DNA of 64,000 nucleotides, from the IMG/VR virus record IMGVR_UViG_3300018080_005419. The stretch is one strand, 5' to 3'. Below the pieces are notes generated by a model. The model saw only the letters and a program-made list of their open reading frames with translations, had not been told where the DNA came from and did no database searches. Every line of letters starts with the position of its first letter. The stretch's first letter is position 1. The position numbers and the translations under genes are program-made. The DNA comes from a virus. Positions 1 through 60,391 of the stretch are shown here, piece by piece.

Positions 1-631
1 AATAATCTTCAAATCGAGTACATACTTTAGTCCCCTTTAAATCAATATGTACAGGTGATGGTTCTTCCGTATCCAAATGCTTTTCAAGAGTTCCATCAGT
101 TTTCCATTCATTTATCTCATACAGCTTATATATACCTTCAGAACCAATTAACTCTTTACTGCTAATTGATTCTGTATGCTTTAACTTTTTTATTTCTTCG
201 TTGACATTCTTGTTGTTTTCTACAATGTCTTTTGCAAGTGCTATTAAATCTTCTTCGTCTTTATCCTTTAACTTTTCTTTGAGCACTTTATATGTATTTT
301 CAAGCTTTCTTTTTTCTCTTTCTTTCGCAGGTAGCCTTTCTAGGAATACATCTTCTAATGCTGCCTTTATTTTTTCAATAGGTCTTTGTGGATCTAACTT
401 ATCTTTAATAAACTTAGAAATAACCCGCATAGCATCTTTAGGGTATTCTTTCTCAAACTCTAAAAACATATCTTTAAGTTTGGCAATAAGACTAGTATCA
501 GTTGTCTTTTTATTGATTTCCTTGAGAAGATACTTATCCCAAGATTCTGCTATCCCTGCAACAAGAATACGCTTACCTGTTAAATTAGATAAGTATTGAA
601 TTGCTTGTGTTGTATGAGAAAATTTAAGCAC
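1..631 (-). CDS. Partial gene (runs off window start): tagged protein of the K(W/V)C-motif paralogue family
   Basis: Not in the ORF track. Hand translation from GTG at 631 is open to position 1: MLKFSHTTQAIQYLSNLTGKRILVA...GSEGIYKLYEINEW...KGTKVCTRFEDY. Has the N-terminal tag and resembles the 38256 and 43642 proteins. Confidence 0.85.
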   Translation of the reverse strand, partial: MLKFSHTTQAIQYLSNLTGKRILVAGIAESWDKYLLKEINKKTTDTSLIAKLKDMFLEFEKEYPKDAMRVISKFIKDKLDPQRPIEKIKAALEDVFLERLPAKEREKRKLENTYKVLKEKLKDKDEEDLIALAKDIVENNKNVNEEIKKLKHTESISSKELIGSEGIYKLYEINEWKTDGTLEKHLDTEEPSPVHIDLKGTKVCTRFEDY

Positions 632-639
632 TTCCTAAA

Positions 640-1125
640 CTATCCTTCTTCAATTCCCGTTACCTTAGCTTTAATAGAAAACTCAACACCAGTAGTTGTT
701 TTAACATGAAAAGATATGTCATCATTCCTTAATTCAACTTCTACATCTTTAATCTCGCCAGGAAGCATATCCATTACTCCTCGGCTTTCTACATATTCCT
801 CAACAAAATCCTTCAAATTATCAGACGCAGCTATCTTTAACCTCTTACCTGTTAAATCTGCAAAAAATTTAAAAGCACTATCCTCAGAAGCAAAAGATAG
901 TTCCTGCTGACCTTTATATCTATTGCTAGTAAAATACTTATCAATTAAATTATGCCGATTCTTTTCTACCCATTCTAATGCTTCTTCTGCTCTAATTCTT
1001 TTCTGATCTGCATAATCCAAAGCAAAAGTCAAAAATGAATCGTCAAATATCTCTTTTGTGTCTAAACCATTTATCTCAGCCACTTTATTAATATAATTCA
1101 AATGTATCGTCGCCATTTTTCTCAA
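640..1125 (-). CDS. Hypothetical protein with internal 25-aa tag (probable start ATG 1116)
   Basis: ORF track; GGAGG RBS; contains GQQELSFASEDSAFKFFADLTGKRLKIA. Confidence 0.8.
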   Translation of the reverse strand: MRKMATIHLNYINKVAEINGLDTKEIFDDSFLTFALDYADQKRIRAEEALEWVEKNRHNLIDKYFTSNRYKGQQELSFASEDSAFKFFADLTGKRLKIAASDNLKDFVEEYVESRGVMDMLPGEIKDVEVELRNDDISFHVKTTTGVEFSIKAKVTGIEEG

Positions 1126-1157
1126 CCTCCAAAAATTCCTCTACATATAATGAGAAC

Positions 1158-1175
1158 AAAATATAAAGAAAATTT
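1158..1175 (-). promoter_or_regulatory. Putative late-promoter motif (ATTTTCTTTATATT on coding strand)
   Basis: About 40-60 nt upstream of the tagged gene; near-identical copies lie upstream of other minus-strand genes. Confidence 0.45.
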
Positions 1176-1369
1176 CACATAAATATATTGTCGAAAATGT
1201 TGTCTTAAAATGACTTATCTCTATGCAAAAACAAACCTGCAGAAAACTTGTAGCAATATCAAAATACATTGTATATAATAAGAAGGTCAAATTGTGTATA
1301 GAGTAGAAGGTTTATGGAGCTTTTGTAAACGTGGGGCAAATTATGGCTTGATATATGTAGGAGAGGAGT

Positions 1370-1561
1370 ATGAAGGCTAAAATATTAATAACAGACTCCA
1401 TTGGCCGATTCAAAGCAGGAGAAATTGGAACCGTGAAAGAAAACGACTTTGACAAATACGATTATTATATTGAGTTAGAAGATGGGATAATGAACGGAGA
1501 AACATTTAAAAGGAATTATTATTTTTATGAGAATGAAGTAGAAATAATAGAAAAGGAATAG
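1370..1561 (+). CDS. Hypothetical protein
   Basis: ORF with AGGAG RBS. Confidence 0.7.
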   Translation: MKAKILITDSIGRFKAGEIGTVKENDFDKYDYYIELEDGIMNGETFKRNYYFYENEVEIIEKE

Positions 1562-1631
1562 ATAGGAATGCAAAGGATTGAAAAGTTAATGTACAGGAGA
1601 GGCAATTTAATCTAACAAGGAGAAATAAGAA

Positions 1632-2362: not shown

Positions 2363-2677
2363 ATGGATACCGAATCAATTAAAGAAATTCTAAATCAATT
2401 AGGTATTGCAGCAGAATCAGCACTTTCAAGTATGTCCGAAGCAATGTGGTATGATGGGCTGTCCAATATTTTTATGGGACTTTTTGTTTTTATTGGAACG
2501 TACATATCATTCAAAATAGCTAAAAAGCATGTTGAAGATGATATAGGAACAGTTGTCATTATATCAATCTTATCTTTTTTTGGTCTAATGTTTATTGCAT
2601 TTTTATTAGGAAATGGCTTTGTGAAATTAATGTGCCCAGAAGGTTATACGCTTTATCAAATACTTAATTCAAAATAA
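2363..2677 (+). CDS. Two-TM membrane protein, paralogue of 1632..1955
   Basis: Sequence similarity visible by eye; hydrophobic segments. Confidence 0.8.
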   Translation: MDTESIKEILNQLGIAAESALSSMSEAMWYDGLSNIFMGLFVFIGTYISFKIAKKHVEDDIGTVVIISILSFFGLMFIAFLLGNGFVKLMCPEGYTLYQILNSK

Positions 2678-2690
2678 AAGAGATATAAAA

Positions 2691-3077
2691 ATGAATTGCA
2701 AACATCCTACCTCATGCCGTATGTATTTCCCTCTTGAATCTAGTTTCTGGTGTTCAAAATGTGGTTCTATTTCTATAATTAATACAAATACAGGCAAAAG
2801 AAAAGAATATAAACCTCAAGATATTATATGCTCTAAATGTTCTCAGTTTTTAGCATACGAAAACAGCGACGAAGAAAGAGAACCTAATAATTGTACAAAA
2901 TGGTTATGTAATGATGGAAAATGCCCACATGAAGACGAATTATATTTTAGGAAAGGAGGAGTAGAAAATCTGGTCCTCGTTAAAGATCCACCATATACAG
3001 GAAAGGCACAAATAGGAGGAGAACCAATAACCCCTCGTCCTCCTCCACCCCAAGATGCTGTTAAGAAAATAAATTGA
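2691..3077 (+). CDS. Cys-rich (putative Zn-binding) hypothetical protein
   Basis: Several CxxC/CxH motifs; Pro-rich C-terminus. Confidence 0.65.
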   Translation: MNCKHPTSCRMYFPLESSFWCSKCGSISIINTNTGKRKEYKPQDIICSKCSQFLAYENSDEEREPNNCTKWLCNDGKCPHEDELYFRKGGVENLVLVKDPPYTGKAQIGGEPITPRPPPPQDAVKKIN

Positions 3078-3102
3078 CATATAAAGATCGAGAAGATATA
3101 AT
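3074..3102 (+). promoter_or_regulatory. Consensus sigma70 promoter of cas12
   Basis: TTGACA (3074-3079), 17-bp spacer, TATAAT (3097-3102); AAGGAG RBS at 3141-3146. Confidence 0.9.
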
Positions 3103-3153
3103 ATAAAATCTACCTATTCTGTGCAATAGGACATTAAAACAAGGAGAAAACAA

Positions 3154-6100
3154 ATGAGTCACGATCTGAAACCGCAAAGATTAATCCGCTCGAACATTAC
3201 CAAAACACATTCCGATCAAAACGCAAAACAAGTAGCAGAAGAAGTCAAGAAAGAACACCTTAACTATCTTCTAATTAAAAATGAAATGCTGATATCAATT
3301 GTCCCTGAAGCAAAAGATGACGATGGAAATGACATTGATTTCAAAAAGCAATTAAAAAGCTTATACAAAGAAACAGATCAATCCGTTTCCTTTTCTGTTT
3401 TTTGCCAGATGATGAAGTTCCGAAATATAGCCCTTCTCTATGCAAAAGGGCAAAGTAGATGGGCTGTCTCTTCGTATTTTACAGGGAATAGAAGAAAAGA
3501 TGATTATGCAAAAGATCTATCTTTATTGGATGAGGCAATCGAACTATTAGAATGTAAAAGACGCAAAAAAGCAGAAGAAGAAAACGAAGAGGAAAATGAA
3601 ACGCCCAAAAAGAAAGAAGATAATCCTTCTAATATCTCAGAAGAACAAATTATGAAGTTGTTCTATGCAGTGAATAAAAAACTAAAAGAAATAGGCTATC
3701 TTGATCGGTATAGTCATATTGAAAAACAAGAGCAATATGCCATTATCGGAGTAACATCAAGAACCGTTAAAGCCTGGGATTATGCTAATTTTGCGACAAG
3801 AAATCACTATCAATCCGTACAAAATGAATACCAAAAGAAATTAAAGGCACTCCCAGGAACCAAGAAGGATAAAGTTTGCCTTGAAAAATTCTTTGATCAT
3901 CTAAATGAAAATAATATTGCAGCAGACTGGGATAAATGGCGTCTTAAAAAGCATATTCTCCAATGTATTATTCCTGCTGCTAAAATAGGCTTAAAAGAAT
4001 TAAAACAATCATTCTATGTAGACAATAAGGGCAATAAACACAATTATTTTGTCAACGGTTTATATGAAGAAATCCTGAAACGACCATTCCTCTATAGTGC
4101 AGAAGATCCAGAAGAATCTATTTTATATCTTGGAGTTGAAGTTGCCTCCTTGCACTCGAAATTGAATCATCTACGCTCAGAAGCTAGATTCTCCTTTGAA
4201 ACTCCCGACGATATATGTAAGTATATGACTATATGCGGAGACAACTATCACAATTTTACCATGTCCGCTATTGGAGAAGATGTTGAAGATATTGAGGTCG
4301 AAGTATATGATTATAACCATTCCAAAAAATATGAAACTATGCGATTCATTAATGGAAAAAGAACTACTGATTTAAGCTTAAACTTTAAAGGCATTCCTGT
4401 GCGTTTATGTCTTGAAGGAAAAAGAAATAATTCCTATTTTGCCGATGCTATAGTATGGGAGCTTGATAATAAGGATAAGACTGGTTATTTAATCGAATAT
4501 GGAAAATCAAACAATAGGCTGTATATGTTAGTTAAAGAACCACTGATAGGCTGCCGTCGCAAATTTGGAAAAGATGTGTTGTTTGTTAGTCTTTCCGGAA
4601 CTCTTGTTAACAAATATATTGAAGATGATATTGTTTCTGCTCGATATTTAATGCAAACGGCGGCTCCTATTTTCAAAACGTCAAGAGCCAAAAAACAAGA
4701 TAAAATAGGAGATAAGTGGTTTGAACATTGCCAAGGATCAACTATTAAAATTGCTGGCATTGATATTGGAATAAACCCTATTGCTGCTATAACTGTTGCC
4801 AATGTTACTTTTGACAGAGCACTAGGGAATAAAATCAAAAACCAAAAACAAATAGTAATCGATTGTTATGCTGAAGATTATAAAATAGATCCAGTTGTCG
4901 TTAAAAGAATGGAAGACATCAGACACATCAAATATACTATCAATTCCTGGTATCATCTTGCGGATTGTTGCCGATTAAAGGCTGCTAATAAAGAATATGT
5001 AGTCAATGAAAGAAAGCAAGGATTCTTCAGAGAAAATATTGAATACCTTAAAGAAGTTGCCAAAAAAGCAATAACAGAATCTGATCAACAAATCAAAGAA
5101 CAAAAAGCTGCCTTAAAAAGATTTGATGGAGAGAAGAAGAAAGAGATACAGGCGACAATTAACGGGTTCAACCTTAAAATCAAAATCTTAAAGAAATTCG
5201 TCAGACAATCCGCTAAAAAGATTTTCGATTCCACATTAGAGACATTGGAAAAGTACGATAATAATATAGAACAGGCAAAAAGAGATAGAGAATTCGGCTT
5301 AAAAATTATTTACGACCTTATCATTAAGTATTATAAAAGATCTAAAAAAGAAAGAGAAATGAATCAGAGAATTTATGTTGACGATTATAACCAGGAAGAA
5401 ATAGACACCGAAAGAACTAAAAAAATTCGCAAAGAGACAATCACATTTTGCGACAACGATTGGAATAGCCTTACTAAACGTATTCATGATCTAGAAAAGA
5501 AGATGAAGAAAATTGGTATTAGCGAACCAGGAAGAGTTGAACAAGAAATTAACGACCGCGACTACTATAATAATATTCAAGATAACACCAAGAAAAGACA
5601 AGCCAAAATTATTGTAGATGCTTTAAAAGAAGAGGGTGTTTCTATTATTGTCGTTGAAGATCTTACAGGTGGCGGTTCTGAAAATACCAAGGAAATCAAT
5701 AAATCTTTTGATGCATTTGCTCCTATTAGATTTCTAAATGCGCTTAAAAATTGTGCCGAGACAAACGGAATACAGGTTACAGAAGTTCTGTCTCCAATGT
5801 CTTCAAAAATGGTTCCAAGTACAGGAGAAATTGGGCACCGTGACAAAAGAGATAAACAGCTATATTATAAAGATGGAGAAGAACTAAAGAGTATAGATGG
5901 AGATATTTCTGCTTCTGAAATTCTATTAAGGAGAGGTGTTTCCCGACATACAGAATTAATTGGGACTATGAATGTTGAAGATGTACTGGATAAAAACAAT
6001 AATAAAAATAAGTGTATAAAGGGATATGTCTGCAATCGATGGGGAAATATACAGAATTTCGAAAAGATCCTTAAAGAAAAAGGAATAGGAGAAAGGGAAA

Positions 6101-6312
6101 TCATCTACTTACATGGCGATAAAATCTTAACCATGGATGAAAAAAGAACATTGCAGGCATCTATCAGAAAAGAACTAAAAGAAATGCGCGAGAGGGAGAG
6201 TGGTGAAGAAAATGCAGGAACCGCTCGCAAAAAATCTAAACCTAAGAAGAAAAAGAAGATAAAAAGAAATAACGATCAAGATTTAAGCAATAATAGACCT
6301 GCAGCAAGTTAA
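3154..6312 (+). CDS. cas12: Type V CRISPR effector (Cas12-family, RuvC), 1052 aa
   Basis: RuvC-I IAGIDIGINP, RuvC-II IIVVEDL, RuvC-III SIDGDISASEILLRRG; SSKMVPSTGEIGHR resembles the post-RuvC-II segment of Cas12b/h/i-type enzymes; directly upstream of a CRISPR array. Confidence 0.92.
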   Translation: MSHDLKPQRLIRSNITKTHSDQNAKQVAEEVKKEHLNYLLIKNEMLISIVPEAKDDDGNDIDFKKQLKSLYKETDQSVSFSVFCQMMKFRNIALLYAKGQSRWAVSSYFTGNRRKDDYAKDLSLLDEAIELLECKRRKKAEEENEEENETPKKKEDNPSNISEEQIMKLFYAVNKKLKEIGYLDRYSHIEKQEQYAIIGVTSRTVKAWDYANFATRNHYQSVQNEYQKKLKALPGTKKDKVCLEKFFDHLNENNIAADWDKWRLKKHILQCIIPAAKIGLKELKQSFYVDNKGNKHNYFVNGLYEEILKRPFLYSAEDPEESILYLGVEVASLHSKLNHLRSEARFSFETPDDICKYMTICGDNYHNFTMSAIGEDVEDIEVEVYDYNHSKKYETMRFINGKRTTDLSLNFKGIPVRLCLEGKRNNSYFADAIVWELDNKDKTGYLIEYGKSNNRLYMLVKEPLIGCRRKFGKDVLFVSLSGTLVNKYIEDDIVSARYLMQTAAPIFKTSRAKKQDKIGDKWFEHCQGSTIKIAGIDIGINPIAAITVANVTFDRALGNKIKNQKQIVIDCYAEDYKIDPVVVKRMEDIRHIKYTINSWYHLADCCRLKAANKEYVVNERKQGFFRENIEYLKEVAKKAITESDQQIKEQKAALKRFDGEKKKEIQATINGFNLKIKILKKFVRQSAKKIFDSTLETLEKYDNNIEQAKRDREFGLKIIYDLIIKYYKRSKKEREMNQRIYVDDYNQEEIDTERTKKIRKETITFCDNDWNSLTKRIHDLEKKMKKIGISEPGRVEQEINDRDYYNNIQDNTKKRQAKIIVDALKEEGVSIIVVEDLTGGGSENTKEINKSFDAFAPIRFLNALKNCAETNGIQVTEVLSPMSSKMVPSTGEIGHRDKRDKQLYYKDGEELKSIDGDISASEILLRRGVSRHTELIGTMNVEDVLDKNNNKNKCIKGYVCNRWGNIQNFEKILKEKGIGEREIIYLHGDKILTMDEKRTLQASIRKELKEMRERESGEENAGTARKKSKPKKKKKIKRNNDQDLSNNRPAAS

Positions 6313-6377
6313 AATAATATAGGCGCTCGAAAAGTACTATATAAGTTGTTCTTTGACAATATGATACAACGAAGACT

Positions 6378-7566
6378 CTATCAGTGTAAAACCCATCGAG
6401 GGTTTATCTACACGGACCGTTGGAAATCCGCCCGTCTTTTTTGAACTCCTATCAGTGTAAAACCCATCGAGGGTTTATCTACACGGATGTTCAGGGACTT
6501 CCTGAATGATATCGCAGCAACTATCAGTGTAAAACCCATCGAGGGTTTATCTACACGGTCAATTCTCGTGCATCCTACGGTGCCCTACGAGCCTATCAGT
6601 GTAAAACCCATCGAGGGTTTATCTACACATGACCTTCGGATATGCGAGGCCGGGCTATGGGAGCTATCAGTGTAAAACCCATCGAGGGTTTATCTACACC
6701 GATGCTTCTCTCTGGCCTTCTCTAAATCGCATCCTTCTATCAGTGTAAAACCCATCGAGGGTTTATCTACACTCGTTGAAGTACTCCAGGTTGCCGCAGT
6801 AGTCAAAGCTATCAGTGTAAAACCCATCGAGGGTTTATCTACACTTGGCCAAACCATGTGCCTCATAGCAGGGCAGGCCGCTATCAGTGTAAAACCCATC
6901 GAGGGTTTATCTACACACGCATTATCCTGACCTCATCAACATGATCATCGAAAACTATCAGTGTAAAACCCATCGAGGGTTTATCTACACACAGGTTGCT
7001 TTTCATTGTTCTTTTCTTTTTCAACTGCTATCAGTGCAAAACCTATTGAGGGTTTATCTACACGGCCACCTCGAAAACTGGCTCCACGATTTCTGCACAT
7101 CCTATCAGTGTAAAACCTATTGAGGGTTTATCTACACGGGATATTGGGGGTCTTCTTGTTGCTGATTTTCAAGCTATCAGTGTAAAACCCATCGAGGGTT
7201 TATCTACACAGCGCTCCTGTTGGATATGGAAAGACACATCTGGCCCTATCAGTGTAAAACCCATCGGGGTTTATCTACACCTCACAACACGAATGGCATC
7301 CAACAGGTCAATCTCCCTCTATCAGTGTAAAACCTATCTAGGGTTTATCTACACACCTGGATGATTGTCGTGATCCAGACACAGGAAACATTCTATCAGT
7401 GTAAAACCTATCGAGGGTTTATCTACACGAGGGCGTTTTTCATGTGTGAATATTTCAGATATCAGTGTAAAACCTATCTAGGGTTTATCTACACAGTAAG
7501 GTCTGAGCCATGGGAAGCTGTAGCCGCGAGCTATCAGTGTAAGGCTCTTAATGGGCCTATCTACAC
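6378..7566 (+). CRISPR. CRISPR array: 17 repeats (36 bp), 16 spacers (35-38 bp, one 30 bp)
   Basis: Consensus CTATCAGTGTAAAACCCATCGAGGGTTTATCTACAC. Repeat starts: 6378, 6449, 6521, 6593, 6664, 6737, 6809, 6881, 6955, 7028, 7102, 7174, 7246, 7319, 7393, 7459, 7531. Variants accumulate rightwards, so the leader is on the cas12 side. Confidence 0.98.
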
Positions 7567-7612
7567 CAAGATCATGCTCCCATTTAAATTAAAAAAGAAA
7601 GGAGAAATAAAA

Positions 7613-8335
7613 ATGCAAGTAGTAGAACAAAGTGCAGAATTATTAGCAATGACGCCAAATCCTCTTTTATTAATTGAGAGGGGTGGTAGAGTTTGCTATA
7701 AAAGTGAAGACAAATTAGAATGTCATAATCTAGGTTGTTGTTCGATTGACAGACAGACAGGAAAAAGATTGCCTCCTTGTGATGACTGTATGCAAAGAGC
7801 GTCTAAATTTGTAAAGGGCATAATTAAGAGAGGTCACGATTCTGTGTTGGAACATGCTAGTGCTACATTTTTATTAATAACAGACAGAGGGATGACACAC
7901 GAACTAGTAAGACATAGAATTTGCTCATTTAGTCAGGAAAGTACGCGATTCTGCAATTATGGTAATAAAGGTGGTGAAATTTCTGTTATTGAGCCTGACC
8001 TATCTGAAGCAAGAGAAAAGTATGGAAAAGCTCAGGATTTATGGCGAGAGACAATGAGAAAGGTTGAAGAAGCTTATTTACAGATGATTGAAATGAAAAT
8101 AGCTCCACAATGGGCCAGATCTGTTCTTCCTACTTGTCTTAAAACAGAAATCGCAACAACAGCCAATTTCAGAGAATGGCGACATATGATTGGTCTGAGA
8201 TTGAACAATAAGGGAGGAAAAGCACATCCACAAATCAGGGCTCTTTTCAGGATGATTTTGGATGAATTGATGCAAACTGAGGCGGCACCAATATTTGAAG
8301 ATATCGCAAAAGAAGCCGAGGAAATGGAAGACTAA
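7613..8335 (+). CDS. thyX: Flavin-dependent thymidylate synthase ThyX
   Basis: GHDSVLEHAS, THELVRHR, FSQESTRFCNY motifs; true start ATG 7613 after AAGGAG (the ORF track extends it into the array). Confidence 0.93.
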   Translation: MQVVEQSAELLAMTPNPLLLIERGGRVCYKSEDKLECHNLGCCSIDRQTGKRLPPCDDCMQRASKFVKGIIKRGHDSVLEHASATFLLITDRGMTHELVRHRICSFSQESTRFCNYGNKGGEISVIEPDLSEAREKYGKAQDLWRETMRKVEEAYLQMIEMKIAPQWARSVLPTCLKTEIATTANFREWRHMIGLRLNNKGGKAHPQIRALFRMILDELMQTEAAPIFEDIAKEAEEMED

Positions 8336-11019: not shown

Positions 11020-13263
11020 TTGCTTATATTCTTTAAAAAGAAGGATATAATATTTATAAATCAGACAAGGACTATTTATAAAATGAGTATATCAGATATT
11101 AATCCATTCAACTACACAAACAGTTGGTTAATGTATAGAAATATTTTTTTGCGGGGTTTAATTATAGATTTAAATATTATTACACAAGAACAACTTAAAA
11201 AATTTATAGCTAATTTTGATAATTTTCACCCTCCAGAACGCATTGCTTATTTTGAAAAAAATATAGGGAAAATAGTCGGAGATGTACCAAAAGATATATA
11301 TTATGACACCTTATTATGGAGAATGAGTAGCGATTTTATTATTGGATATGATTTAGGGCTTGAAAAAAAAGGTTGGTCATTAGCAGAAATAGAAAGAGAA
11401 ACAAGAACAAAAGTTTTGCATCATGTAGAAGAAAGAAACGAAGAGGGATTGAATGGTTATAGTATGTTAAGTCATGAATTAAAATGTTATAAAAGCTATT
11501 TAGAAAAAAAGTTATTTTTGATTCATGATTTTGGGAAGCATGCTGTTGAAATTCACAAAAAGGGAAAGAAAATGACAGAAATGGATTATAAAGAGCACAT
11601 AAAAACTTTGAAATACGAACATGGAAATTGTCATGCATTTCTAATTAAATTGAGAAATATAATGGCACGTTTTTTTGATTTTTCTAAAGAGTTAATAGGA
11701 ATTGAGTTTTCAAAAATAAAGAATTCTAAAGGAAAGGAGTCATCTCAGGCTGTATATATGTTATATTATTTTTTAGATCGATACGATGCTACTTGTAAAG
11801 GAAAAAATAATTTTCTTAACAAGGTAAATAAAGCAAGAGATATAGAACAATTGCCGTATACAACTTATACTTGTTTGACAAAACGTCAACTTGTCGAGTT
11901 TATATATATATTGAATACTTTGGCATATGCTGATGATTCGACAACCGAAAAGTGCAAGCCGAAAGATATAAGAAGTCTTCGAAAATACATTAAAGGATTC
12001 TCACAAGAAAAAATCAATAAAGATTTTGATGATTTTGAAAAGAAGATTCTTTCTTTGAGCGAAGAAGATTTTGTCAATGGCATTATTAAATCTAGAACTG
12101 GAGCTGGAACAGATATAGAATTAGATTTTGATATTAATGATAAAATATATTATGAGGGATTAGAAGATGAAATAGGAGATGAAATAGAGGAGTTAAATCA
12201 AGAGACAACAATAGATGCAAAAGACGAAGAAATCAAAAAAGGAGAAGAAATGAAGACACAAGACAAAGAAACAACAGAGAAAGCGAAGAGAAAAGAAAGA
12301 CAACCCCGAGATCTTAATGAAGAATATATTAAAAAAATAATTAAAGCTACCAATAAAAAATACTTAAGAGGTGTATTTTTACAATTAAAAGATCCTAAAG
12401 AAAATAAAGACAAACTGATAATTGGATTTAGCGATATTAGTACAAGCTCCGATAAATTTATAGTAGCAGATTTTTTTCAAGAAGAAGGCTACAAAGCAAA
12501 GCCAATTATTTATGGCAGTTTGGATTTACTTATAAAATCAATTTATGGAAACAACAAAAAATCTGGAGTTGGAGAACTAGTAATTTTATTAGAAGATGTG
12601 TCGAATATTTTAAACAGCGAAGATTGCCAAAGGTCGTTTGCTAACATCTTAAATATCTCAAATTTTATTATGTCTAATGGTTACACTTATACTACTGTTG
12701 AGAATTATATTACAAGGAGATATCCAAACAAAGAAAAATATACTAATGCTATAGAAAAACCAGAAAAAGAGAAAGATGAAAAAGGAAACGAAATTGAAGT
12801 TGATTTTAAACTTAAATTAAATATAGATAATATAAATAAAGAACAATATATTAAACTTTTTGATCCTCAAACTAGCATTGAAATTCATAAGAAAATTCAG
12901 AAATTTAATCCACAAAATGGCATTAGATATTGCGACCTTAAACGCAAAGAGATAATTAAAAAATCAGATTTTAAAATTAATAATCTTCGAGATTTTGTAA
13001 TGGAAAGAATAAAGATAGAAGACAATAAGAATAGTGATTCTCCTCAAGGAAAAACAAAACCATCAGAACCGTCAAATATGATTGATGTACAAGAAATATA
13101 TTTTTCCGGAATTCAAGCCCTAATTGAATCTCAAGAACATACAAATAAATTTAGAATTGCTAAAAATGTGATCGAACAATATCAGAACAAAGAAATCACA
13201 AAAGAACAATTGCATTTTATTTTGGATGAATTAGACATTAAAATGCCAATAGGCATAAAGTAG
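11020..13263 (+). CDS. Large hypothetical protein (about 730-750 aa; start possibly ATG 11083)
   Basis: Long uninterrupted ORF; no family motif recognised. Confidence 0.8.
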   Translation: MLIFFKKKDIIFINQTRTIYKMSISDINPFNYTNSWLMYRNIFLRGLIIDLNIITQEQLKKFIANFDNFHPPERIAYFEKNIGKIVGDVPKDIYYDTLLWRMSSDFIIGYDLGLEKKGWSLAEIERETRTKVLHHVEERNEEGLNGYSMLSHELKCYKSYLEKKLFLIHDFGKHAVEIHKKGKKMTEMDYKEHIKTLKYEHGNCHAFLIKLRNIMARFFDFSKELIGIEFSKIKNSKGKESSQAVYMLYYFLDRYDATCKGKNNFLNKVNKARDIEQLPYTTYTCLTKRQLVEFIYILNTLAYADDSTTEKCKPKDIRSLRKYIKGFSQEKINKDFDDFEKKILSLSEEDFVNGIIKSRTGAGTDIELDFDINDKIYYEGLEDEIGDEIEELNQETTIDAKDEEIKKGEEMKTQDKETTEKAKRKERQPRDLNEEYIKKIIKATNKKYLRGVFLQLKDPKENKDKLIIGFSDISTSSDKFIVADFFQEEGYKAKPIIYGSLDLLIKSIYGNNKKSGVGELVILLEDVSNILNSEDCQRSFANILNISNFIMSNGYTYTTVENYITRRYPNKEKYTNAIEKPEKEKDEKGNEIEVDFKLKLNIDNINKEQYIKLFDPQTSIEIHKKIQKFNPQNGIRYCDLKRKEIIKKSDFKINNLRDFVMERIKIEDNKNSDSPQGKTKPSEPSNMIDVQEIYFSGIQALIESQEHTNKFRIAKNVIEQYQNKEITKEQLHFILDELDIKMPIGIK

Positions 13264-34071: not shown

Positions 34072-35226
34072 TTAAGCGATACTAGCTGTCCGAAAGGACA
34101 GTCTTACGGTATCTAGGCCAGCAGAAGATGCCCCTTCTGCATAAATATTAAAACTAGCGTTCCGATCTCTGTCTAATTCAGTTTTACAACTAGGGCATAT
34201 CCAACTTCTGTCTTTTAACGTTAATCCTTCATTCTTATACCCACATACATAGCATTGTTTAGTAGATGGAAAGAAGCGATTGATTTTATGCACTGTCTTA
34301 AGATATTCTTCGGCTTTAAAGCTCAAAATCTGCATAAACTGATAAAATCCTAAATCGCTTACTTTTCTTCCATATTGTTTTTGCAGCCATTTGATGTTTA
34401 AATCTTCGAAAAACATATAATCATAACTTCGAACTAAAGCTAAAGCTAGTTTAAAATGGAAATCTTTTCTTTTGTTAGTTATCTTTCTATGCATCCTAGC
34501 TAACTTCAATCTAGCTTTTTCTTTATTTCTACTTCCATCTTTCTTTTTAGACAAAGATCTGTTTAACTTCTTTATTCTTCTAATGTCCCTTTTAAAAAAC
34601 AAAGGGGATTTTATATCTTTGTAATCGCTAGATGTTAGAAAGGTTTTCAACCCAAAGTCAAATCCTGCGCTTTTACCCGTCATGAATTTGTCTTTTTCTG
34701 GGCTGTCTTCTAAGACTAACGATATACAAAGCCAAAGATCACCTAAACTATCTCTCTTTATCGTTACTGTTTTTACTTCTCCTTTCGTTTCTCTTGATTT
34801 AGAATACTTATAAATACTCTTCTTTATTTTGATTTTGTTTCCTTCCAGGAATTTATATCCTGCTTGTTTAAGCGTAAATGATTTGTATTTTTTAACCTTT
34901 TTAAACGAAGGAGGGCTACATTTTATTTTCTTTTTGTGCAGTTTAAAAAACAGCTTGTATGCTTTGTCTATACGTTCAGTTATATCTTGAACTGATTGAC
35001 TTGGAATAACCTTAAGATATTTAAATCTTTCTATATTGCTGTTTCTAAGTTTTTTAATATGCTTTTGCAGCTTGTTTTTATCAAGATATTTTCCGTAGAG
35101 TTTATAGTATTTTTTATGCAATGCTATGCAATGATTATACAAAATTCCTGTACAATCAATTGTCTGCATAAGAAAACAATTTCTCTTATGCTTATACAAT
35201 TTATATTTATACGTTCTTCTCTGCAT
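34072..35226 (-). CDS. tnpB: TnpB RNA-guided endonuclease
   Basis: HTH N-terminus, GFDFGLK, FFEDLNI, CYVCG/CPSC Zn finger, DRDRNASFNI; the three RuvC acidic residues are present. Confidence 0.96.
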   Translation of the reverse strand: MQRRTYKYKLYKHKRNCFLMQTIDCTGILYNHCIALHKKYYKLYGKYLDKNKLQKHIKKLRNSNIERFKYLKVIPSQSVQDITERIDKAYKLFFKLHKKKIKCSPPSFKKVKKYKSFTLKQAGYKFLEGNKIKIKKSIYKYSKSRETKGEVKTVTIKRDSLGDLWLCISLVLEDSPEKDKFMTGKSAGFDFGLKTFLTSSDYKDIKSPLFFKRDIRRIKKLNRSLSKKKDGSRNKEKARLKLARMHRKITNKRKDFHFKLALALVRSYDYMFFEDLNIKWLQKQYGRKVSDLGFYQFMQILSFKAEEYLKTVHKINRFFPSTKQCYVCGYKNEGLTLKDRSWICPSCKTELDRDRNASFNIYAEGASSAGLDTVRLSFRTASIA

Positions 35227-35229
35227 AAA

Positions 35230-35628
35230 TTATTTGTTTTTCTGATCGTCTATATACTTCTGAATTGTTTCTTCAGAAATATGTCCAACGGACTCACAAT
35301 AATAACTTCTTGTCCAAAGACAAGGAAGTCTGCTTTTTAAAGAATTAAACTCTTTTCTTAAATTTCTAGAAGAATATCCCTTTAATTGTTGAACTATAAA
35401 ATGAGGACTGTCAACAGGAGTAGCTTTTACAAAGAGATGAACATGTTCAGGCATAACTTCCATAGAAAGAATTTGAACACTTAGCTCTTTGGCTTTTTCT
35501 TTTAATAATTGTTTCAATCTTTTTTCAATATCATCAACAAAAACAGGTCTTCTATATTTAGAACACCAAATAAAATGATAGCCTATGTTGTAAACACAAG
35601 TTTTGCTAGTTGTCCATCTCTTTTCCAT
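35230..35628 (-). CDS. tnpA: IS200/IS605 Y1 (HUH) transposase TnpA
   Basis: YHFIWCSKYRR, PEHVHLF (HUH), LWTRSYY, IQKYIDDQ. Confidence 0.96.
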   Translation of the reverse strand: MEKRWTTSKTCVYNIGYHFIWCSKYRRPVFVDDIEKRLKQLLKEKAKELSVQILSMEVMPEHVHLFVKATPVDSPHFIVQQLKGYSSRNLRKEFNSLKSRLPCLWTRSYYCESVGHISEETIQKYIDDQKNK

Positions 35629-46076: not shown

Positions 46077-46148
46077 GCGCCCGTCGTCCAATGGTTAGGG
46101 CTCAGATCTCTAAAATCTGTTATAGGAGTTCGATTCTCCTCGGGCGCA
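46077..46148 (+). tRNA. Amber suppressor tRNA (anticodon CUA)
   Basis: Cloverleaf: acceptor GCGCCCG/CGGGCGC, D arm GTCC-AATGGTTA-GGGC, anticodon stem CAGAT/ATCTG with loop CT-CTA-AA (anticodon 46110-46112), 4-nt variable loop, T arm AGGAG-TTCGATT-CTCCT, discriminator A; CCA not encoded (CTA follows). Confidence 0.9.
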
Positions 46149-46188
46149 CTAATATTATCAAAGAATCAAACTTTTTCAAATAGTTTTC

Positions 46189-47975: not shown

Positions 47976-48416
47976 ATGCCAAGAAATATAATCCGATTTT
48001 ATAGACACACTCAGCCTTGTTTTTGCTTTTCGAACTTTTTTAAGTTTCCAATAGTTCTTAAAGATAAAATATGGCCTACTTCGGAACACTATTATCAAGC
48101 CCAAAAATTCACAAATACTGAATATGAAGAAAAGATCAGGCTTCTCAAAACACCAAAACAAGCAGCAAATATGGGCAGAGACAGATCCCTTCCTCTAAGA
48201 AAAGATTGGGAAGAAGTTAAAAATGAAATTATGTACGAAGCTTTAACGGCCAAATTTTCCCAATCAAAAGAATTAAAATCTATTCTTCTAGCAACAGGAA
48301 ATGCAATATTGATAGAAGACTCGCCTAAAGACTATTATTGGGGATGCGGAAAAGATAATACAGGAAAGAATATGCTTGGGAGATTGTTGATGAAAATTCG
48401 CAAACAAATGAGGTAA
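47976..48416 (+). CDS. NADAR (YbiA/DUF1768) family hydrolase
   Basis: FSNF, WPTSEHYYQAQKF, LRKDWEEVK, LIEDSPKDYYWG, GKNMLGRLLMKIR. Confidence 0.92.
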   Translation: MPRNIIRFYRHTQPCFCFSNFFKFPIVLKDKIWPTSEHYYQAQKFTNTEYEEKIRLLKTPKQAANMGRDRSLPLRKDWEEVKNEIMYEALTAKFSQSKELKSILLATGNAILIEDSPKDYYWGCGKDNTGKNMLGRLLMKIRKQMR

Positions 48417-49628: not shown

Positions 49629-50564
49629 ATGAATATATTGCAAGCTATTATTGATTTTTTCTGGATGTTTAGGAAAAAGCCAAAAGAGAGTAAACCCGAA
49701 AATAATGAAGGAGAAAATAATATGTCAGAAGAAACGAATACGGCCCCAGCTATTGTTCCGAAAAGAGAAAAAAGAGCATTGTTAGTTGGTATTAATAAAT
49801 ATAGAATTCCTGCTGCTAATTTAAATGGCTGTGTTAATGATGTAGAAGATATTTATCATCTTCTCACAACTACCTATGATTTTAAGCCAGATAATATAAG
49901 AGTAATTGTTGATGAAAGAGCCACTAAAGCAGAAATTGAAAAAAGATATAAATGGATTCTTTCTTCAACAAAAGAAAATGATGAAGCGCTTATATATCAT
50001 AGCGGACATGGAAGTCAATGGAGGGATCGTTCTGGAGATGAGCTTTCTGATAAATTAGATGAAATTTTAATAACTCATGATCATACCTGGAGAGATCCTT
50101 TAACTGATGATGTTATCGGAGAATATTTTAAGCAGTTAGTTAAAGGTGCATATCTCACAATGATAGTTGATGCCTGTCACTCTGGAACAATCACTAGATC
50201 TTTTATTGGAAACCCTGAACCATATGCTATTCGTTATTTGCAGCCTCCATTTGATATTGCAGCAAGAAGTATTGGAAGAGATATGCCTTTAAGATTTGTT
50301 GGGGCTAAAACTGGGGATGAAGAAAATCAAAGACATATTCTTTTATCTGGTTGTAAAGAAAGCGAAACAAGCAAAGAATTAAGATTAGGAACAAAAATTA
50401 GAGGAGCGTTAACCTATAATTTAACGAAACTATTAAGAGAAAATCCGAATATGACATGGAAAGAAGTACAACAAAAAATTATACCATTAGTAAAAAGACT
50501 AGATCAAGAGCCACAATTGAGAGGTATGACGGAACTTAAACAACGTAAAGTTTTTGGAGGATAA
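49629..50564 (+). CDS. Caspase-family (peptidase C14, metacaspase-like) protease
   Basis: KRALLVGINKY, LNGCVND, YHSGHGSQ (catalytic His), VDACHSG (catalytic Cys), LLSGC, GALT. Confidence 0.92.
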   Translation: MNILQAIIDFFWMFRKKPKESKPENNEGENNMSEETNTAPAIVPKREKRALLVGINKYRIPAANLNGCVNDVEDIYHLLTTTYDFKPDNIRVIVDERATKAEIEKRYKWILSSTKENDEALIYHSGHGSQWRDRSGDELSDKLDEILITHDHTWRDPLTDDVIGEYFKQLVKGAYLTMIVDACHSGTITRSFIGNPEPYAIRYLQPPFDIAARSIGRDMPLRFVGAKTGDEENQRHILLSGCKESETSKELRLGTKIRGALTYNLTKLLRENPNMTWKEVQQKIIPLVKRLDQEPQLRGMTELKQRKVFGG

Positions 50565-59542: not shown

Positions 59543-60391
59543 ATGAAAATGCAATTTGTTGGAGTTGGATCTGCCTTTACTACTCAGGAATATTATCAGT
59601 CAAATGTTTTAGTTATTGCAGAAAGTGGAAAAAAGTTGCTGATTGATTGTGGTAGCGATGCTAGATTTGCCCTACAAGAATTAAATATTAAGCCTGACGA
59701 TTTAGATGGTGCTTATGTTAGTCATTTGCATGCTGATCATGTTGGAGGCTTAGAATGGTTGGCTTTTTGTACGTATTTTAATCCCAACGCAGAACGACCA
59801 AAACTATATTGCAATTCTGAATTAATGCCTCAGTTGTGGGAACAGGCATTAAGAGGAGGTTTAGAGTCAATACAAGGCAAAGTGGTGACTCTAACTGAAT
59901 ATTTTGAGTGTGTCCCAATTCCTCAAAATGAATCTTTTTATTGGGAAAATATTGAATTTACTCCTGTTCAAACGGTTCATGTTATGGCAGGCTACTACAT
60001 CAAATATTCTTATGGGCTTTTGATTCAAGAAGAGTCTACAGAATCAATAGCATACGATGAACCATATGATGCACTAGGAAATGGATGTATCAATTCTTAT
60101 AGGAGAGTAGAAAGAAAGGTCGAAAAACCCGTTGTATTTTTCACAACAGATACGCAATTTTGTCCTAATCAAATTAAGGATTTTTATAATAGGGCGGATA
60201 TTATTTTTCATGATTGCGAAACGTTTCCTTTTAAGAGTGGAGTTCATGCCCACTATGAAGATTTAAAAACATTAGATAAAGAGACAAAAGAAAAGATGTG
60301 GCTCTACCATTATCAGCCAAATCCATCACAAGATGCAAAAGAGGATGGATTTGCTGGATTTGTTCAGAAGGGTCAAGTGTTTGAAATTTGA
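59543..60391 (+). CDS. MBL-fold metallo-hydrolase, Apyc1-like cyclic nucleotide phosphodiesterase
   Basis: GVGSAF, LLIDCG, SHLHADHVGGLE, LWEQALRGGL, TTDTQF, FHDC, GVHA, LYHY in the same order as in Apyc1/RNase Z-like enzymes. Confidence 0.8.
   Translation: MKMQFVGVGSAFTTQEYYQSNVLVIAESGKKLLIDCGSDARFALQELNIKPDDLDGAYVSHLHADHVGGLEWLAFCTYFNPNAERPKLYCNSELMPQLWEQALRGGLESIQGKVVTLTEYFECVPIPQNESFYWENIEFTPVQTVHVMAGYYIKYSYGLLIQEESTESIAYDEPYDALGNGCINSYRRVERKVEKPVVFFTTDTQFCPNQIKDFYNRADIIFHDCETFPFKSGVHAHYEDLKTLDKETKEKMWLYHYQPNPSQDAKEDGFAGFVQKGQVFEI

Follow-up and report, generated by a model that had tools for sequence, protein, structure and literature searches.

A highly divergent Cas12 effector and its CRISPR array on a probable huge-phage contig

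Work on the type V effectors Cas12o1 and Cas12X is reportedly that of Duan et al. (Cell Res 2025, as cited in PMC12721324). Together with Cas12X2, these effectors (PDB 8xca, 8wru, 8zqb, 8zqc) provide the best structural and profile match to the protein described here, P0001, a Cas12 of 1052 amino acids (aa) encoded next to a CRISPR array in a 64-kb stretch of the viral record IMGVR_UViG_3300018080_005419 (IMG/VR), which is called the window below and starts 18 bases inside a 280,011-bp ENA metagenome contig, ERZ27256796 k141_362108. Two wider settings have also been described, namely a variant of Cas12h, described computationally, which acquired Cas3 and in which effector and partner are both predicted to be active (Altae-Tran et al., PNAS 2023, PMC10691335), and the type V systems of huge phages, which lack Cas1, Cas2 and Cas4 and carry spacers against competing phages as well as host genes (PMC7162821); both the wider clade of P0001 and phage type V systems without adaptation genes have been reported before. 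An initial annotation had proposed for this locus a phage-encoded minimal type V system with a divergent effector of an uncommon subtype. All of its statements on the sequence could be reproduced, and its interpretation was supported in part. In the present analysis the locus, which lies on a probable huge phage, is read with moderate confidence as a minimal type V CRISPR-Cas module that functions in interference. The effector belongs, as a highly divergent member, to an uncharacterised Cas12h/Cas12o-like clade and is here without Cas3 in the stretches examined.

The effector and its relatives

P0001 exhibits the organization of a type V effector, being a single large protein with a split C-terminal RuvC nuclease (D, E, D) and an array adjacent to its gene, and family scans of the protein yielded no match to HNH or another nuclease family. 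All three acidic RuvC residues announced by the initial annotation were confirmed, since D537 of RuvC-I (IAGIDIG), E835 of RuvC-II (IIVVEDL) and D917 of RuvC-III (IDGDISA) occupy invariant columns of a 20-sequence family alignment. Pfam and PADLOC searches of P0001 returned no match, and NCBIfam gave only a sub-threshold TnpB-related match over residues 814-878. A word-indexed search of 5.8 billion protein clusters retrieved the query itself only, and HMMER, run exhaustively over 1.84 billion representatives, retrieved 46 other proteins, mostly of 900-1050 aa, the best of them at 27-28% identity. The high identity to a characterised subtype, named at the outset as a check on novelty, was not found in this search. 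Overall, P0001 is at most 28% identical to anything among approximately 15 billion proteins; tblastn of the protein against 50,697 phage records gave no match, and no relative was confirmed in IMG/VR, whether the protein or the family alignment served as the query. The protein itself is already present in public metagenome collections, a point that had been left open, and no name or Pfam family was seen for it there. The family profile matched solved structures of Cas12X/Cas12o1 (E 3e-46), Cas12X2 (E 2e-31), Cas12h1 (E 2e-26), Cas12b (E 2e-18) and Cas12f (E 1e-12).

The predicted structure is in line with these matches. An AlphaFold (AF2) model built from the family alignment (mean predicted local distance difference test score, pLDDT, of 76) aligned with Cas12X, Cas12o1 and Cas12h1 at statistically tied Z scores of 20-23, over 550-770 residues across positions 2-1015, followed by Cas12b (Z 17-18), Cas12f (Z 14-15), Cas12i (Z 13-14) and CasPhi (Z ~13), with CasLambda matched at a Foldseek E of 7e-6. 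The model displays the bilobed Cas12 fold (WED, REC, RuvC-Nuc), residues 2-1015 being alignable with Cas12X, Cas12h and Cas12b. On the basis of full-length alignment with Cas12b, Cas12h and Cas12o, the "long helical insert" initially singled out between RuvC-I and RuvC-II has to be corrected to the REC2/Helical-II domain that is standard in the Cas12b-like layout. No cysteine pairs occur between RuvC-II and RuvC-III of P0001, and the reported absence of a TnpB-type zinc finger therefore stands, but it is not peculiar to this protein, as the family consensus and the aligned stretch of Cas12h1 are also without cysteine. P0001 is indeed larger than CasPhi and CasLambda (~700-800 aa).

A quick maximum-likelihood tree of 36 full-length family matches, which gave long-branch warnings, placed P0001 inside a clade of 21 rows (clusters at 50% identity) with a Shimodaira-Hasegawa-like approximate likelihood ratio test (SH-aLRT) support of 99, apart from the Cas12o-like group. 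Its closest partner in the tree is P0017 (SH-aLRT 97), a pairing that needs caution as both are long branches. The Cas12o-like group comprises P0028, which matches Cas12o1 at E 2e-95, together with P0036 and P0044, whereas P0002 and P0018, the top matches of P0001, resemble Cas12o1 over RuvC only. By the tree, and by a similarity to Cas12o1 that is limited to RuvC, P0001 does not fall within the Cas12o clade, and it appears to belong to no characterised subtype, in keeping with the uncommon subtype first proposed.

The 21-row clade includes P0002, P0004, P0005, P0007 and P0011, all of which lie beside Cas3, and the adjacent Cas3 proteins contain cas3_core, cas3_HD and Cas3-like_C_2, representing a true HD plus helicase. 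The clade most probably corresponds to the Cas3-associated Cas12h variant clade of PMC10691335, a correspondence drawn from the published description. Judged from the tree, P0001 is not an orphan, being placed as a member of a clade of about 20 clusters that are mostly Cas3-partnered among those examined. The relatives' loci with cas12 and cas3 are class 2/class 1 hybrids; one of them, L006, also has an array of 13 repeats, and some of the relatives' contexts are phage-like (small open reading frames, GP88). For the locus of P0001, no Cas3 was detected in the window by tblastn or by a profile from three clade Cas3 proteins, and the precomputed Pfam lists of called genes (contig bases 1-60,582) contain no Cas3 and, as initially noted for the window, no Cas1, Cas2 or Cas4. 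The P0017 locus likewise has no adjacent Cas3 within 3.7 kb downstream. No accessory gene was found conserved around cas12 across seven loci. A 747-aa open reading frame (ORF) of the window at 11020-13263 was considered as a hidden helicase and rejected, showing no similarity and no Pfam match.

Array, guide RNA and leader

The 65-nt gap, the 17-repeat array and its position upstream of thyX were all reproduced at the coordinates first given, thyX (PF02511, phrog_85) beginning shortly after the array. Of the 17 repeats in the array, one measures 35 nt and the others 36 nt, and 10 are identical to the 36-nt consensus CTATCAGTGTAAAACCCATCGAGGGTTTATCTACAC; the 16 spacers have lengths of 30-38 nt. 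The bulged hairpin flush with the spacer that had been described was recovered on folding the repeat, with the structure ......(((((((((((.....))))))...))))), an energy of -10.2 kcal/mol and a z of -3.3. In the terminal repeat the inner stem is changed from AAACCC/GGGTTT to AGGCTC/GGGCCT by two double substitutions and one wobble, and this repeat folds identically to the consensus at -12.6 kcal/mol; such compensatory changes indicate that the bulged hairpin is preserved. The internal repeat variants lie mostly in the loop or form a G-U pair, and variants accumulate in the distal half of the array. Repeats of relatives were compared by single-sequence folds; a MAFFT alignment set the stems out of register. 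In the P0017 repeat GAAGTAGTGTGGAAGTCCAGCAGGGCTTCGTTGACAC the GTGT...ACAC outer stem recurs and a bulge is again present on the 3' side, while the inner stem differs in sequence but is self-complementary; this resemblance lends independent support to the pairing of P0001 and P0017. The repeats of L021 and L006 are laid out like that of P0001 (tail, outer stem, inner stem, loop, 3' bulge), which supports the placement in the clade independently. A search with the repeat pattern gave 0 matches in ~185,000 species genomes, IMG/VR and JGI metagenome contigs, and the known JGI copy described below was not returned by it either. For the putative dependence on host adaptation that was first suggested, this search yielded no array of a candidate host.

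Transcription of the array from the + strand, with the repeat as a 5' handle like that of other type V crRNAs (CRISPR RNAs), is indicated by the variant repeat at the thyX end, the leader elements at the cas12 end and the co-orientation of the array with cas12, which is also observed in L006 and L021. The longest repeat-complementary stretch anywhere in the window is 10-11 nt, corresponding to chance level, in agreement with the initial statement that an anti-repeat for a trans-activating CRISPR RNA (tracrRNA) is lacking, and an Rfam scan of positions 2500-8000 found no family. The four closest solved relatives (Cas12X, Cas12X2, Cas12o1 and Cas12h1) were deposited, according to their entry titles, as complexes with crRNA only. 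From these relatives and the lack of an anti-repeat here, P0001 is very probably guided by crRNA alone, as first suggested.

The promoter upstream of cas12, described initially as a perfect sigma70 match, agrees with the consensus at every position and is the sole perfect TTGACA-17-TATAAT site in the window, where 0.13 would be expected; going by this match, the system may be expressed early, as first proposed. No terminator-like site was found on the + strand between the promoter and the array. The GC content of cas12 (0.336) equals that of the window (0.335), indicating that the gene is a long-term resident. The gene was also found on a 29-kb JGI metagenome contig, where the array is present with the same 16 spacers and a 1-base difference in repeat 2, and on a 6-kb Logan contig, which ends before the array. 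The ENA, JGI and Logan assemblies all break at most ~1.6 kb upstream of the block of small ORFs that precedes cas12 (window 1-1600), and this shared break may reflect a genome end or a repeat.

A leader motif was observed as a further feature of the clade, on the basis of the present comparison and without a published criterion. CGCTCG[AC]AA is confined to the sequence that closely follows cas12; it is present there in the window and in six of six relatives with downstream flank (L004-L007, L022 and L023, the last with its duplicate L024), and nowhere else in the 26 loci compared. In the relatives it often forms an inverted pair near a TCTTTGACA element. The window contains two copies, one of which, CGCTCGAAA, occurs once in the 64 kb (0.18 expected) and lies in the leader, where the -35-like TCTTTGACAAT is also found, while the other is located within the end of cas12, so that the ORF has apparently been extended over former leader sequence. 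As the motif is kept across loci whose proteins are only ~25% identical, it points to an unrecognised signal, possibly for regulation or for spacer acquisition.

Spacers, proposed mechanism and alternative readings

The mean GC content of the spacers is 0.50 compared with 0.335 for the window, which indicates that the targets are foreign to the phage. No spacer matched the window, the whole array had no match in GenBank phage and PLSDB plasmid records, and five spacers searched as exact 26-mers had none in IMG/VR. Spacer 6 is informative at the protein level, where the peptide encoded by its reverse complement, FDYCGNLEYFN, represents a conserved HsdR motif just after Helicase_C of EcoEI-type HsdR. 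The degenerate pattern FDYCGN(L/F)EYFN was found in 12 species genomes from several phyla, with ~3e-4 occurrences expected in 596 Gb as calculated here; 10 of the 12 matches, those with a frame not cut short, are in frames that stay open for 445 to 1,320 codons, contig ends truncating several of these, and both of the frames scanned contain HSDR_N, ResIII and Helicase_C, with EcoEI_R_C in one. At the DNA level spacer 6 was matched at best over 33/36 positions, by a Microthrixaceae genome and by a single metagenome contig, and the latter, hsdR-like contig was rejected as a protospacer, being near-exact only. Spacers other than spacer 6 gave no protein-level match to the fetched hsdR loci. By its encoded motif, spacer 6 derives from an hsdR gene of EcoEI type in an organism or element that is as yet unsampled, and relative to the coding strand of hsdR its crRNA would be antisense. 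This HsdR-derived spacer offers a testable lead towards phage CRISPR arrays aimed at restriction systems.

A course of events can be proposed for the locus. Host RNA polymerase would transcribe cas12 from the consensus promoter at 3074, and the array would be transcribed either as the 3' part of the cas12 transcript, as the lack of a terminator-like site between them allows, or from the TTGACA element of the leader. The pre-crRNA would then be cut into units consisting of a 5' repeat handle (GUGUA-AAACCC-loop-GGGUUU-AUC-UACAC), ending in ...AUCUACAC and flush with the guide, followed by the spacer at the 3' side, and a tracrRNA would not be involved. The Cas12-crRNA complex would recognise double-stranded DNA beside a 5' protospacer-adjacent motif (PAM) and form an R-loop, upon which the single RuvC site (D537/E835/D917) would nick or cut the target. 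Part of the spacers would seemingly be directed against defence genes, either the host's own or those of a co-resident mobile genetic element (MGE), and the rest probably against competitors, with spacer acquisition not performed by genes of this locus. Expression, processing, DNA cleavage, PAM dependence and biological role are all predicted in this scheme.

Several observations weigh against a functional interference module of this kind and give rise to alternatives. In five of the nine relatives looked up (P0002, P0004, P0005, P0007 and P0011) cas12 adjoins a Cas3 gene of ~730-770 aa, and the clade may require a Cas3-type partner that is missing from this locus; moreover, the cas gene scan covered ~60 kb of the 280-kb contig, and Cas12h1 is reported to prefer nicking (PMC11830025). 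The Cas3 adjacency and the nicking preference, along with the Cas3 association noted for the Cas12h variant (PMC10691335), favour a Cas3-dependent hybrid, in which Cas12-crRNA would find and perhaps nick the target and Cas3, encoded elsewhere on the 280-kb genome or supplied by the host, would degrade it; this is nevertheless considered unlikely, given the negative tblastn and profile searches of the window, the nearest tree neighbour P0017 likewise without Cas3 in the 3.7 kb downstream, and the RuvC triad kept in all clade members. Position 919 of RuvC-III, nearly invariant as N, is S in P0001, whose branch length is 2.2 substitutions per site, so that its activity may be reduced. The atypical RuvC-III, the antisense orientation of the spacer 6 crRNA and the proposal that huge-phage spacers against host genes alter regulation (PMC7162821) would fit a programmable silencer, which would bind or nick its target, leave it undegraded and in this way shut off genes of the host or of an MGE, for example hsdR, in the course of infection. 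This reading appears similarly improbable, given an intact and invariant catalytic D/E/D triad and just one informative spacer.

Two samples yielded an identical array, with no sign of ongoing acquisition, and this observation, the long branch, the distal accumulation of repeat variants and the ORF running over leader sequence might instead represent a decaying relic of a Cas12-Cas3 ancestor that lost Cas3, became non-functional and kept a frozen array. Such a relic is thought very unlikely in view of the intact 3.2-kb ORF with its catalytic residues, consensus promoter and ribosome-binding site, the 10 exactly consensus repeats, the variants that keep the hairpin, and a cas12 GC content matching the genome. 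No virion gene (capsid, terminase or tail) was seen in the window and most of its ORFs lack a family match, as would be the case if the 280-kb contig were a plasmid-like or other extrachromosomal element with an ordinary MGE-borne defence system; little credence is given to this either, since several PHROG families match and the window carries thyX, a dCMP deaminase, a polymerase exonuclease subunit, an Apyc1-like gene, a CUA tRNA and dense co-oriented small ORFs. Two limits of the spacer evidence also count against the interference module, in that none of the spacers had an exact protospacer in the searches made, the best DNA match of spacer 6 being the 33/36 given above, and that an origin was identified for only 1 of the 16 spacers. 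The functional interference module remains the preferred reading, and a narrower version of it, which is tentative and judged possible rather than probable, would see the crRNA-guided Cas12 as a phage counter-defence weapon against defence genes, with hsdR as the first case, and as a stand-alone offshoot of a Cas12-plus-Cas3 family sharing the CGCTCG[AC]AA leader control element.

Genomic setting and comparison with known systems

The contig is a probable huge phage, and the phage-fitting content of the window includes, beyond the genes already named, a nucleoside deoxyribosyltransferase, a NADAR gene, an IS200/IS605 element and long runs of the small co-oriented ORFs. The Apyc1-like, NADAR-domain and Peptidase_C14 genes listed in Table 1 suggest a wider repertoire of counter-defence or host manipulation. 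With the TnpB of the IS200/IS605 element, this genome encodes a further RNA-guided RuvC nuclease, unrelated to P0001.

Table 1. Features of the window, domains of P0001 and cas3 genes of relatives (window positions unless residues or a locus are named)
Feature	Position	Strand	Remarks
Putative sigma-70-type promoter, TTGACA-17-TATAAT	3074-3102	+	consensus match 12/12
Shine-Dalgarno-like AAGGAG	3141-3146	+	8 nt upstream of ATG at 3154; read from sequence
cas12 gene, 1052 aa (P0001)	3154-6312	+	ORF; RuvC triad, alignment, AF2 model
Motif copy 1, CGCTCG[AC]AA	6222-6230	+	inside codons of disordered Lys-rich C-terminal tail
Leader, 65 nt	6313-6377	+	cas12 stop to first repeat
Motif copy 2, CGCTCGAAA	6324-6332	+	in leader
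TCTTTGACAAT, -35-like	6350-6360	+	recurs in relatives' leaders
CRISPR array, 17 repeats and 16 spacers	6378-7566	+	consensus CTATCAGTGTAAAACCCATCGAGGGTTTATCTACAC
Spacer 6	6773-6808	+	reverse complement encodes FDYCGNLEYFN
Terminal repeat variant	7531-7566	+	leader-distal end of array
thyX	begins at 7613		
IS200/IS605 element, TnpB (OrfB_IS605 plus TNB)	34072-35226	-	
IS200/IS605 element, Y1 TnpA	~35230-35628	-	
tRNA, anticodon CUA (amber-reading)	46077-46149		ARAGORN
NADAR-domain gene	47976-48416		
Caspase-like Peptidase_C14 gene	49629-50564		
Anti-Pycsar Apyc1-like metallo-beta-lactamase gene	59543-60391		
P0001 REC2/Helical-II domain	residues ~580-826		
P0001 conserved C-terminal domain	residues ~940-1015		
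P0001 disordered Lys-rich tail	residues 1020-1052		
Relative's cas3, L004	5253-7514 of locus		
Relative's cas3, L006	5709-7961 of locus		
Relative's cas3, L007	137-2431 of locus		
Relative's cas3, L023	5742-7922 of locus		

Interest in the locus lies in a Cas3 partner that is lost or absent, in the HsdR-derived spacer and in the conserved leader motif, and its value as a tool is limited by a size above that of the compact phage effectors and would depend on PAM and activity. A phage CRISPR system aimed at an anti-phage element is reportedly known from Vibrio phage ICP1, whose type I-F CRISPR-Cas is directed against the host PLE island (Seed et al. 2013); that system is said to be class 1, with its own Cas1-Cas2/3 and an experimentally proven activity, whereas here one spacer of HsdR origin provides a lead only. 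The genomic setting is shared with CasPhi (Cas12j) and CasLambda, which likewise combine a huge-phage effector and an array with no Cas1, Cas2 or Cas4 and no tracrRNA (PMC7162821), but these are other branches of Cas12, being absent among the sequence matches of P0001 up to E 1 and giving fold scores far below those of Cas12X, Cas12h and Cas12b. The description of Cas-delta (NAR 2025), with proteins of 867-936 aa and ~30% mutual identity, 36-nt repeats, guidance by crRNA only and a tail domain at the C-terminus, found in environmental metagenomes and lacking an adaptation module (PMC12721324), fits the P0001 locus, the likeness being one of description.

With Cas12o1 and Cas12X, P0001 shares a 36-nt repeat (PMC13717751 for Cas12o1), the lack of a zinc finger and a C-terminal domain after RuvC-III, whereas the P0001 sequence taken by itself resembles Cas12o1 over RuvC-II/III only (E 1.5e-5), with 14-18% identity over the structural alignment; Cas12o1 has 908 aa and an ATG PAM compared with the 1052 aa of P0001, and the Cas12o-like P0028, P0036 and P0044 form their own clade. 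Cas12h1 of subtype V-H (PDB 8y9l, 9l12) is guided by crRNA only, as P0001 probably is, and is comparable to P0001 in its lack of an adaptation module, its REC2 between RuvC-I and RuvC-II and its Cas12b-like domain order, and its structural score is tied with those of Cas12o/X; it differs in having 870 aa and in being bacterial rather than phage-borne, and P0001 matches it over RuvC only (E 1.1e-5) at 13-15% identity, the tree containing no bona fide Cas12h sequence. The members of the Cas3-associated Cas12h variant clade, of ~930-1050 aa and with an active RuvC kept, are each 23-28% identical to P0001 and, in the five cases named, have cas3 beside cas12, in contrast to the locus described here. 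The effector apparently works without the Cas3 of its relatives, and a comparison with those linked to Cas3 could reveal how this partner contributes to the action of a type V effector; the locus adds a deeply divergent phage-resident effector to a poorly explored branch between Cas12b, Cas12h and Cas12o.

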